Origin: Candidatus Omnitrophota bacterium
Lineage (GTDB): Bacteria > Omnitrophota > Gorgyraeia > Gygaellales > Gygaellaceae
Direction: 5' to 3'
NCBI GenBank assembly: GCA_041309125.1
Contig: JBFZAD010000196.1
Location: forward strand, 1-19,594
Length of the DNA: 19,594 nt
The notes below the pieces were generated by a model that searched no databases, was not told the DNA's origin, and was given only the letters and a program-made list of their open reading frames with translations. Both the position numbers and the translations under genes were made by a program. This document shows, in pieces, positions 11,410 through 13,619 of this stretch (position 1 is the stretch's first letter; every line of letters begins with the position of its first letter).

Positions 11410-12612
11410 CTACTCAAGATAGGTATAAATCTTTCCCTTGTAGTTACGTATTGTGTATCTACTCTTGGCTTGAGACAAGAGATAACTAGGCCCAATAGGC
11501 ACCTTACCGCCTCCACCAGGTGCATCTATGACATAGACTGGCACTGCATAACCAGAGGTATGGCCTCTTAGCTTTTCAATAATATTAATCCCTGTAGAAA
11601 CAGGAGTTCGAAAATGAGAAGTACCCTTTACTGGATCACACTGATAGATATAATATGGCCTCACTCGTATCTTAAGCAGCTCGTGCATGAGTTTTCGCAT
11701 AATATAAGGCTTGTCATTAATGCCTTTTAAGAGAACGGTCTGGCTACCCAAAGGAAATCCGTTATCTGCAAGCATATCACAGGCCAATCTTGAGCGCTTT
11801 GTGATCTCGCGCGGGTGATTGAAATGAATGCTTATCCATATAGGAGCATATTTCTTGAGCATGGTGACTAGATTTTCAGTTATTCTCTGTGGGAGTGTCA
11901 CAGGCACACGCGTACCTATTCTTAAAAATTCTATATGAGGTATACTCCTTATATTTTTAACAATTTCCTCAAGTACATCATCTTCAAGCATCAATGGATC
12001 TCCGCCAGAGATTAAAACATCCCGTACCTTCTTATTTGATCTTAGATATTCATAGGCATCATCTAATTTATTAGCACCTATGGTCTGCCTCTTTTCGCCA
12101 ACCAGTCTTCTTCTGGTACAGTGCCTGCAGTAGGTGGCACAATTCTCTGTTGCCAATAATAAAACTCTGTCCGGATATCTATGAACAAGACTTAAGGCCG
12201 GCGAATCCTTATCTTCTCCGCAAGGGTCACTCATCTCTTGAGTAGAAAAATGAAATTCTGATTCAGTTGGTACTGCCTGACGTCTTATAGGGCATTTAGA
12301 ATCATACGGGTCCATCAAGGTTGCAAAGTAAGGAGTAATTGCTATGGAAAGCCTGCCATTACATCTTTTGATGGCCTTCTCTTCTGCCGGTGTAAGTAAA
12401 ATAATCTCGCTCAATTCATCCTTTTTAGTAATTCTATTTTTTATCTGCCAATGCCAATCCTCCCACTCTAAGGGATTTACATCTTTAAAAAGACTTGTTG
12501 AACGGTAATCTATAGGAAAATAGATTCTCTTCGGTTTTATTATCGGGACATCCTGTTTAAGCAATTGAATCTTCTCGCTGACAATCTCCTGGGTGTTATT
12601 AAGCTGTGGCAA
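11410..12612 (-). CDS. kamA: KamA-family radical SAM, PLP-dependent aminomutase (lysine 2,3-aminomutase-like)
   Basis: It has the CATYCRHC radical-SAM CX3CX2C motif and the N-terminal WEDWHWQIKNRI motif. SGGDPL, YIYQCD and IDAPGGGGK (PLP lysine) are also present. The start is TTG, preceded by GGAGGAG. Confidence 0.9.
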   Translation of the reverse strand: MPQLNNTQEIVSEKIQLLKQDVPIIKPKRIYFPIDYRSTSLFKDVNPLEWEDWHWQIKNRITKKDELSEIILLTPAEEKAIKRCNGRLSIAITPYFATLMDPYDSKCPIRRQAVPTESEFHFSTQEMSDPCGEDKDSPALSLVHRYPDRVLLLATENCATYCRHCTRRRLVGEKRQTIGANKLDDAYEYLRSNKKVRDVLISGGDPLMLEDDVLEEIVKNIRSIPHIEFLRIGTRVPVTLPQRITENLVTMLKKYAPIWISIHFNHPREITKRSRLACDMLADNGFPLGSQTVLLKGINDKPYIMRKLMHELLKIRVRPYYIYQCDPVKGTSHFRTPVSTGINIIEKLRGHTSGYAVPVYVIDAPGGGGKVPIGPSYLLSQAKSRYTIRNYKGKIYTYLE

Positions 12613-12629
12613 CTAATCTCCTCCTTGTT

Positions 12630-13619
12630 TTATAGCTGCAATCTTTTTATAGCAGATTCTACAATCTTAGCAATAATACGGTCGTAGCCTATCTTTGTAT
12701 GCTCTGCTACAAAAAAGAATGCATCTTCCTTGCATAGTATTGGCAAAGGATTAATCTCAAGTACGTAAATATTGTTATCCTTATCAACTCTAAAATCGAC
12801 CCTCCCCAAATCTCGGCAATCAACTGCCTTATATGTCTTAAGTGCGGCATCTTTTAATCTGGCTTCTAGTTCTTTACTAATCCGGGCAGGGCAAATATAT
12901 CTTAATTTATCGGAGCTTAGCCGCTCAAATGTATAAAACATGTCGCCTAAATCAAGTCTTCCGTCAATCTGTATCTGGACTGGCGGAAAGACCTCTATAG
13001 GATCATTGCCGACAATCGGAACTGTGAATTCTGTGCCTGAGATAAATTCTTCAACCAATGCCGGCTGCTTATAGGTTTTAGTGATCCGCAGAACTTCATC
13101 CTTTAATGATTCCATATCTTCAACTCTAGAACCATTGGTAAGCCCCTTTGATGAGCCTTCATATCGCGGCTTAACAATCATTGGAAAGCTAACATGATCC
13201 GTATCCTTAAGCTCATCTACGTCTTTAACATTAAAAAACCGCGGAGTTGGTATGCCTTCAGACATGAGAATCTTTTTAGTAAGGGCTTTATCGAGCGTTA
13301 AACCTAATGTAAGTGCATCTGCGCCAATATAAGGAATATGATAAAGCTCTAAAATCATAGGAACCTGTGACTCTCTGTTTCTGGTTTGAAATCCTTCAGC
13401 AATATTAAGGACAAGATCGGCTCCTAAATCAGGCAAGGCCTTTAAGAGATTATAAACATTGCCAATGCGCTTGACTTGATAGCCATTGTTAACCAATGCA
13501 GTTGAAATCTCTGAAAGCGTTTTTTCATTATCAAATTCTGCAATTACATCAACAGGATCTGAAGGCCTTGGTATATAATCAGATTTTAAATCGTATGTCA
13601 GTCCAATAGTTTTAACCAT
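12630..13619 (-). CDS. D-alanine--D-alanine ligase family ATP-grasp ligase, substrate unknown
   Basis: ATP-grasp signatures are PMIVKPRYEGSSKG, LVEEFISGTEFTV and GRVDFRVDKDNNIYVLEINPLP. It is 329 aa, and its stop lies 17 nt upstream of the kamA start. Confidence 0.8.
   Translation of the reverse strand: MVKTIGLTYDLKSDYIPRPSDPVDVIAEFDNEKTLSEISTALVNNGYQVKRIGNVYNLLKALPDLGADLVLNIAEGFQTRNRESQVPMILELYHIPYIGADALTLGLTLDKALTKKILMSEGIPTPRFFNVKDVDELKDTDHVSFPMIVKPRYEGSSKGLTNGSRVEDMESLKDEVLRITKTYKQPALVEEFISGTEFTVPIVGNDPIEVFPPVQIQIDGRLDLGDMFYTFERLSSDKLRYICPARISKELEARLKDAALKTYKAVDCRDLGRVDFRVDKDNNIYVLEINPLPILCKEDAFFFVAEHTKIGYDRIIAKIVESAIKRLQL

Follow-up and report, generated by a model that had tools for sequence, protein, structure and literature searches.

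The window analysed here, the whole 19,594-nucleotide stretch of contig C196 (JBFZAD010000196.1), belongs to a metagenome-assembled genome (MAG) of a Candidatus Omnitrophota bacterium (GCA_041309125.1) that measures 1.84 Mb, is 83% complete, and has an estimated contamination of 4%. All large genes of the window lie on the minus strand. Two of them are the subject of this work: a gene for a 329-residue ATP-grasp paralog of the D-alanine–D-alanine ligase Ddl, here called AG1 (positions 12630–13619, ATG start, Pfam Dala_Dala_lig_C), followed by kamA (11410–12612, TTG start), which encodes a 400-residue lysine 2,3-aminomutase (LAM) of the LAM/AblA type that lacks the zinc site. The original prediction, made from the DNA alone, described the two genes as 17 nt apart with a GGAGGAG Shine–Dalgarno sequence before kamA, and the coordinates confirm this: the spacer occupies 12613–12629, and the GGAGGAG sits 5 nt ahead of the kamA TTG. 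The TTG start is supported by the KamA proteins of relatives, whose alignment to the window KamA begins at residue 3. It was further proposed that the pair forms a module for beta-amino-acid ligation, in which the aminomutase works with a partner outside the established set. Our analysis supports this proposal: across the phylum the two genes stay together and are in some cases fused, which makes it very probable that their product is an amide of beta-lysine.

KamA is readily placed by comparison with the Clostridium subterminale enzyme. Its residues 38–400 match residues 5–367 of LAM (PDB 2A5H) without a gap (E 1e-141). The iron–sulfur cysteines C158, C162, and C165 correspond to LAM C125, C129, and C132, which retains the CX3CX2C motif of radical S-adenosylmethionine (SAM) enzymes, and direct counting in the same alignment finds LAM R134, D293 (in YQCD), and D330 (in IDAPGG) identical in KamA, as is the lysine that carries pyridoxal 5'-phosphate (PLP; K337, in GGGGK). 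These motifs had been noticed beforehand, with the D293/D330 positions and the missing C-terminal zinc tail set against the clostridial enzyme, and the comparison was correct. The zinc site is absent: C268 is replaced by Lys, and the C-terminus falls at LAM residue 367, ahead of Cys375, Cys377, and Cys380. The same holds more widely, as no Cys is found at LAM position 268 in any of the 19 ligase-linked KamA proteins aligned, and 18 of 19 ligase-linked or fused KamAs keep the catalytic and lysine-binding residues, D293 and D330 included. The best NCBIfam model for KamA is TIGR03820 (AblA), whose equivalog threshold is missed (518.1 bits, with 525.4 required) because the C-terminal tail is missing from KamA; the match spans model positions 5–360 of 417. 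KamA exceeds the threshold of the subfamily model TIGR00238 (346 against 199), and the remaining aminomutase models all stay under threshold (glutamate, 470 against 650; arginine, 420 against 600; EpmB, 239 against 369). Judged by its sequence, KamA is thus a member of a zinc-less LAM clade that still bears the lysine-binding determinants, and D293/D330 mark it as a putative lysine enzyme that is predicted to convert L-lysine to beta-lysine.

AG1 appears to be derived from Ddl and to act as a Ddl no longer; its residues and model suggest an enzyme that is active but re-specified. The AlphaFold (AF2) model (predicted local distance difference test score of 95.5) has a full-length Ddl fold, and its best fold matches in the PDB are all Ddl or Van ligases, with template-modelling (TM) scores of 0.80–0.86 at ~24% identity. 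Four lines of evidence argue that AG1 is not the housekeeping Ddl. First, it falls under every curated Ddl cut-off, with a best score of 172.9 bits against 243 (NF002378) and 151 against 245.65 for TIGR01205. Second, a residue comparison against DdlB of E. coli and five canonical Ddls of Omnitrophota revealed that AG1 retains the ATP/Mg residues K97, K144, E180, E187, R255, D257, E270, and N272 and is altered at five D-Ala-binding positions (H63E, K215L, Y216S, S281D, and L282A). The canonical Omnitrophota Ddls retain all six residues at issue, E15, H63, K215, Y216, S281, and L282; the equivalent of E15 is not placed in AG1, whose N-terminal 34 residues, in which a GLTYDLK...AEFD motif is conserved, find no alignment to Ddl in a profile comparison. 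Third, in a maximum-likelihood tree of 104 sequences, the Ddl clade stands apart from all KamA-linked ligases with 99% support in the Shimodaira–Hasegawa-like approximate likelihood-ratio test (SH-aLRT), and AG1 forms its own clade (100%), separate from that of a second paralog, AG2 (98%). Fourth, a canonical above-cut-off Ddl is encoded elsewhere in 19 of 21 genomes from the order; the two from the same family are among them and carry it in addition to the AG1–KamA pair. It could be argued that AG1 is nonetheless the D-Ala-D-Ala ligase of the source genome, standing beside kamA by coincidence, since no Ddl-type gene above cut-off was found in this MAG besides the AG1 locus. Given a genome just 83% complete, the missing Ddl is best explained by incompleteness, and with the replaced residues and the separate clade we give this reading almost no weight. 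At Ddl substrate positions AG1 has gained the acidic residues E75 and D299, which would suit a cationic substrate with extra ammonium groups.

The pairing of the two enzymes holds far beyond the window. An even sample of 201 Omnitrophota genomes contains 62 with KamA, counted at E 1e-96 or better, and a hand count from the coordinate tables places a ligase no more than 430 bp from KamA, on the same strand, in all 62. The gene order varies by lineage: the ligase precedes KamA in this class, whereas KamA comes first in more distant families, where the ligase type that follows it is labelled AGd. This difference in order points to selection on the linkage rather than inherited synteny. In some genomes the two activities are joined in one polypeptide. 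Genome G145 encodes both in a single 731-residue open reading frame (ORF), with KamA at residues 36–381 and the ATP-grasp part beginning at residue 400 and aligned up to 692, and the representatives of a 50%-identity library include ligase::KamA, KamA::ligase, and ligase::ligase fusions. The ligase domains fused to KamA are AG1-like, AG2-like, and AGd-like, with no single paralog singled out, and the occurrence of fusions in both orders argues for consecutive steps. ATP-grasp relatives of the ligase are also present in many other phyla.

The two-gene form of the window is a minority layout. The 80 nearest loci, all from Omnitrophota-type MAGs, comprise 60 with the order AG1–AG2–KamA and eight with AG1–KamA as in the window; the remainder are cut by contig ends. 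Both same-family genomes match the window layout gene for gene. The majority arrangement, taken with the family-wide two-gene layout, indicates that AG2 was lost in this lineage, where a single ligase evidently suffices for a useful product. Beyond the class level, no neighbour other than the KamA–ligase pair itself recurs in 15 loci from different families; the non-recurring neighbours include LD-carboxypeptidase, TerC, GNAT, enolase, PmbA/TldD, and two unassigned proteins common to two loci. As separate observations, a protein of 329–358 residues without a Pfam match lies 3' of the module in G143 and G145 (L043 10889–11878 and L044 5904–6980), and in G145 an LD-carboxypeptidase stands between the fused gene and this protein. 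The two same-family genomes (G209 and G201) encode a further, more distant Ddl-like ATP-grasp protein of 340 residues, ~28–31% identical to AG1/AG2, which is paired with an unassigned 336-residue gene product away from the KamA locus (L090 7170–9199 and L092 7289–9318).

To our knowledge, few fates of beta-lysine are established: the acetylated osmolyte, the modification of EF-P, fermentation, and antibiotic building blocks. No match to the acetyltransferase AblB (TIGR03827) was obtained in the source MAG and four near-complete relatives. Most Omnitrophota loci are without a GNAT in the vicinity, and a small GNAT adjoins the module in one of the 15 loci from different families. AG1 might therefore be imagined to replace AblB, N-acylating beta-lysine with a small carboxylate or bicarbonate (acetate, formate, or carbamate) in the manner of PurT, to give a charge-neutral N-acyl-beta-lysine solute made without acetyl-CoA. 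ATP-grasp enzymes can activate small acids, formate in the case of PurT, and the sufficiency of the single-ligase form in the source genome's family would agree with such a step. By sequence and fold, however, AG1 is nearest to the Ddl/Van amino-acid ligases and not to PurT or PurK, and the second ligase paralog that is usual in relatives fits stepwise peptide building better, which leaves this alternative quite unlikely. Replacement of the polyamine spermidine was also considered and set aside, as a canonical speE is present in the source MAG and in genomes with and without the module.

A protein target would offer another fate for beta-lysine, and the EF-P data bear on it directly. EF-P of the source MAG (contig C123) has a lysine-tipped KPGKG loop, and EpmA was not found in the source MAG or in the four near-complete relatives (three of these five genomes are in one or two contigs), where only full-length LysRS and AspRS-like matches appear below the EpmA cut-off. 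On these grounds AG1 could be a beta-lysylating enzyme for a protein lysine, either at the EF-P loop tip and independent of EpmA, or on the EF-G paralog or YchF-like protein encoded downstream; RimK is an ATP-grasp enzyme that modifies a protein, and 39 of the 80 nearest loci have the EF-G paralog after the module. Against this, the same KPGKG loop occurs in 23 genomes with the module and in seven without it, DHS-like genes are found in both groups with no complementary pattern, and KamA resembles LAM rather than EpmB. EF-P was accordingly set aside as an unlikely target. The EF-G paralog has its own sigma-70 promoter between kamA and the EF-G-like gene, a near-consensus TTGACG-17-TATAAT (11287–11315, minus strand, 11 of 12 positions), and accompanies the module in four of the 15 loci from different families, being absent beside it in the other 11. 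Its position next to the module is a matter of lineage synteny, and the promoter marks a boundary outside the module. The original prediction was right that no minus-strand terminator-like site separates kamA from this gene; it did not mention the promoter, and its speculative suggestion that a translation factor such as EF-G2 or the YchF-like protein could be the target finds no support in the promoter, the distant loci, and the unchanged EF-P loops. A translation-factor target is thus not supported by the EF-P, EpmA, and DHS data, and we regard modification of a protein as very unlikely.

The Ddl ancestry of AG1 raises the cell wall as a further destination. AG1 has the full Ddl fold and could attach beta-lysine to a peptidoglycan precursor, on a side-chain, in a cross-bridge, or as an amide of a stem-peptide carboxylate. 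The pair would then parallel Enterococcus faecium, where an aspartate racemase is combined with the D-aspartate ligase Aslfm, itself an ATP-grasp enzyme. Lineages of freshwater and groundwater carry the module like a housekeeping trait, and the LD-carboxypeptidase beside the fused gene at one distant locus would also be in keeping with a role in the wall. Yet no mur, mraY, fts, or other wall or cell-division genes are conserved beside the module in the 15 loci from different families, and about two thirds of the sampled Omnitrophota lack the module and nevertheless have Ddl-type matches. We therefore consider a cell-wall role unlikely.

The reading that we prefer, with moderate confidence, is a two-step pathway to a free, small-molecule amide of beta-lysine. 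KamA, with its radical-SAM and PLP chemistry, would convert L-lysine to beta-lysine in the cytoplasm, probably as the 3S isomer by closeness to clostridial LAM. AG1 would then use ATP to form an acyl-phosphate, followed by an amide bond between beta-lysine and a second small molecule, for which an amino acid, a second (beta-)lysine, or a small acid are candidates. The product would be a beta-lysine dipeptide or an isopeptide-like compound, to which AG2 may add a further unit in most relatives, and the family of the source genome, with AG2 lost, would make a shorter product. We infer beta-lysine as the substrate of the ligase, the freedom of the product, and the kind of partner from the enzymes' identities and conserved residues, the lost Ddl specificity, the adjacency, and the fusions. 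The chemistry has precedents, the nearest being PylB/PylC and AblA/AblB. In PylB/PylC, a radical-SAM lysine mutase is followed by a Ddl-like ATP-grasp enzyme that forms a lysine isopeptide, and Ngg is an ATP-grasp enzyme that makes the dipeptide osmolyte NAGGN.

Several observations weigh against a free beta-lysine amide. The close relatives come, by their record titles, from groundwater, lakes, and peat, where the need for a salt-stress solute is not obvious. AG1 is without Lys215, which is needed for Ddl catalysis, so that its chemistry may differ in detail, and the 34 N-terminal residues that cannot be aligned to Ddl leave the first-substrate site unplaced. It is also conceivable, if improbable, that AG1 transfers beta-lysyl groups to a macromolecule, either to the stem peptide of peptidoglycan or to a lysine of a protein, for example at the EF-P loop tip. 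If so, the module would represent an ATP-grasp, acyl-phosphate route to beta-lysylation that is independent of EpmA, an aminoacyl-tRNA-synthetase-like enzyme.

The region upstream of AG1 suggests that the small-molecule pathway is regulated. A promoter-like site for the operon (13743–13772, minus strand) consists of TTGACA, an 18-nt gap, and TAAATT, scoring 10 of 12, and its TTGACA box and TGTG-TAAAA -10 region align upstream of the module in seven of eight relatives. It is followed by a leader of ~120 nt (13620–13742, minus strand), identified by sequence and folding, in which a terminator-like hairpin has a GC-rich stem at ~13665–13643 and a run of seven U at 13642–13636 that ends 16 nt before the AG1 ATG; no Shine–Dalgarno sequence precedes this ATG. 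The hairpin and T-run are kept in relatives and were found, by a crude criterion, in 53 of the 77 nearest loci. From these features the leader looks like an attenuator, and since the operon has a promoter to itself and a terminator at the end of its leader, its expression may be gated. Rfam returned no family at gathering thresholds for the whole window, and for the leader its E-value mode gave nothing beyond chance-level matches. The middle of the leader holds a conserved GGAGAAAAUA element. A 23-codon TTG frame (13683–13612) crosses the terminator and stops 4 nt past the AG1 ATG; it was not taken as a gene. A carrier mini-protein or precursor peptide was likewise looked for and rejected, as the two flanking intergenic regions hold just short, unconvincing ORFs.

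Immediately upstream of the module, 13799–15548 (minus strand) encodes a UPF0280-family member (PRK04334) together with a HypE-type AIR-synthase-like protein. Among the 80 nearest loci, 33 have the UPF0280 gene ahead of AG1, an arrangement not seen in distant families. Downstream, the EF-G paralog (9276–11222, minus strand, 648 residues) aligns to EF-G models in two separate parts, lacking ~45 model positions in the G-domain region, and is the third, divergent EF-G paralog of the source MAG. The other two are full-length canonical genes on contigs C174 (fusA) and C92, with 1072 and 1001 bits, and may reflect either a true duplicate or a binning artefact. The next gene (8554–9252, minus strand) encodes a 232-residue protein that has only the C-terminal YchF domain (DUF933), its N-terminal part having no match among GTPase models. 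In relatives, this gene keeps its synteny with the EF-G paralog and purH.

The original prediction came with checks on three points, and each came out in its favour. The ligase does not cluster with genuine Ddl but is set apart by tree, scores, and residues, with canonical Ddl present in relatives; the pairing is held across the phylum and fused in some genomes; and the aminomutase resembles LAM/AblA and not EpmB, with EpmA not found in the four near-complete relatives. Our full-text search of the literature gave no paper in which a lysine aminomutase is connected to an ATP-grasp ligase. The tight coupling or fusion of KamA to Ddl-derived ligases would add a further fate of beta-lysine, an amide or peptide formed by acyl-phosphate chemistry, and the module is widespread in Omnitrophota, a phylum of uncultured, ultrasmall bacteria. 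Once the product is identified, a large set of genes that now carry the annotation D-alanine--D-alanine ligase or ATP-grasp domain protein would gain a function, and a cause of erroneous cell-wall annotation would disappear. Of the versions of the module, the two-gene form in the window is the simplest to reconstitute.

Set beside known systems, the module shares parts with several. AblA/AblB of methanogens and some bacteria, like kamA-yodP of Bacillus, also places a LAM-type aminomutase beside an enzyme that derivatises beta-lysine. The partner there is a GNAT acetyltransferase, whereas here it is an ATP-grasp ligase; AblB was not found in the five genomes searched, and the window KamA has no zinc site. 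EpmB/EpmA likewise has a KamA-family aminomutase that supplies beta-lysine to an ATP-dependent ligating enzyme, but the window KamA stays well below the EpmB model, EpmA was not found in the same five genomes, and EF-P does not co-vary with the module. With the Ddl/Van ligases, AG1 has in common the full-length fold and the ATP/Mg catalytic residues, and it differs from Ddl in its scores, in the replacement of H63, K215, Y216, S281, and L282, in its separate clade, and in the true Ddl found elsewhere in relatives. Ngg and the L-amino-acid ligases BacD and TabS are ATP-grasp makers of free dipeptides, one of them an osmolyte; we know of none that takes as substrate a beta-amino acid supplied by a neighbouring aminomutase. 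PylB/PylC shares the logic of the module, a radical-SAM rearrangement of lysine and then an amide ligation by a Ddl-like ATP-grasp enzyme. It differs in that PylB stands outside the KamA family and makes 3-methyl-D-ornithine, there is no PylD-like gene here, and PylC is not among the best sequence or fold matches of AG1, which are all Ddl or Van ligases.

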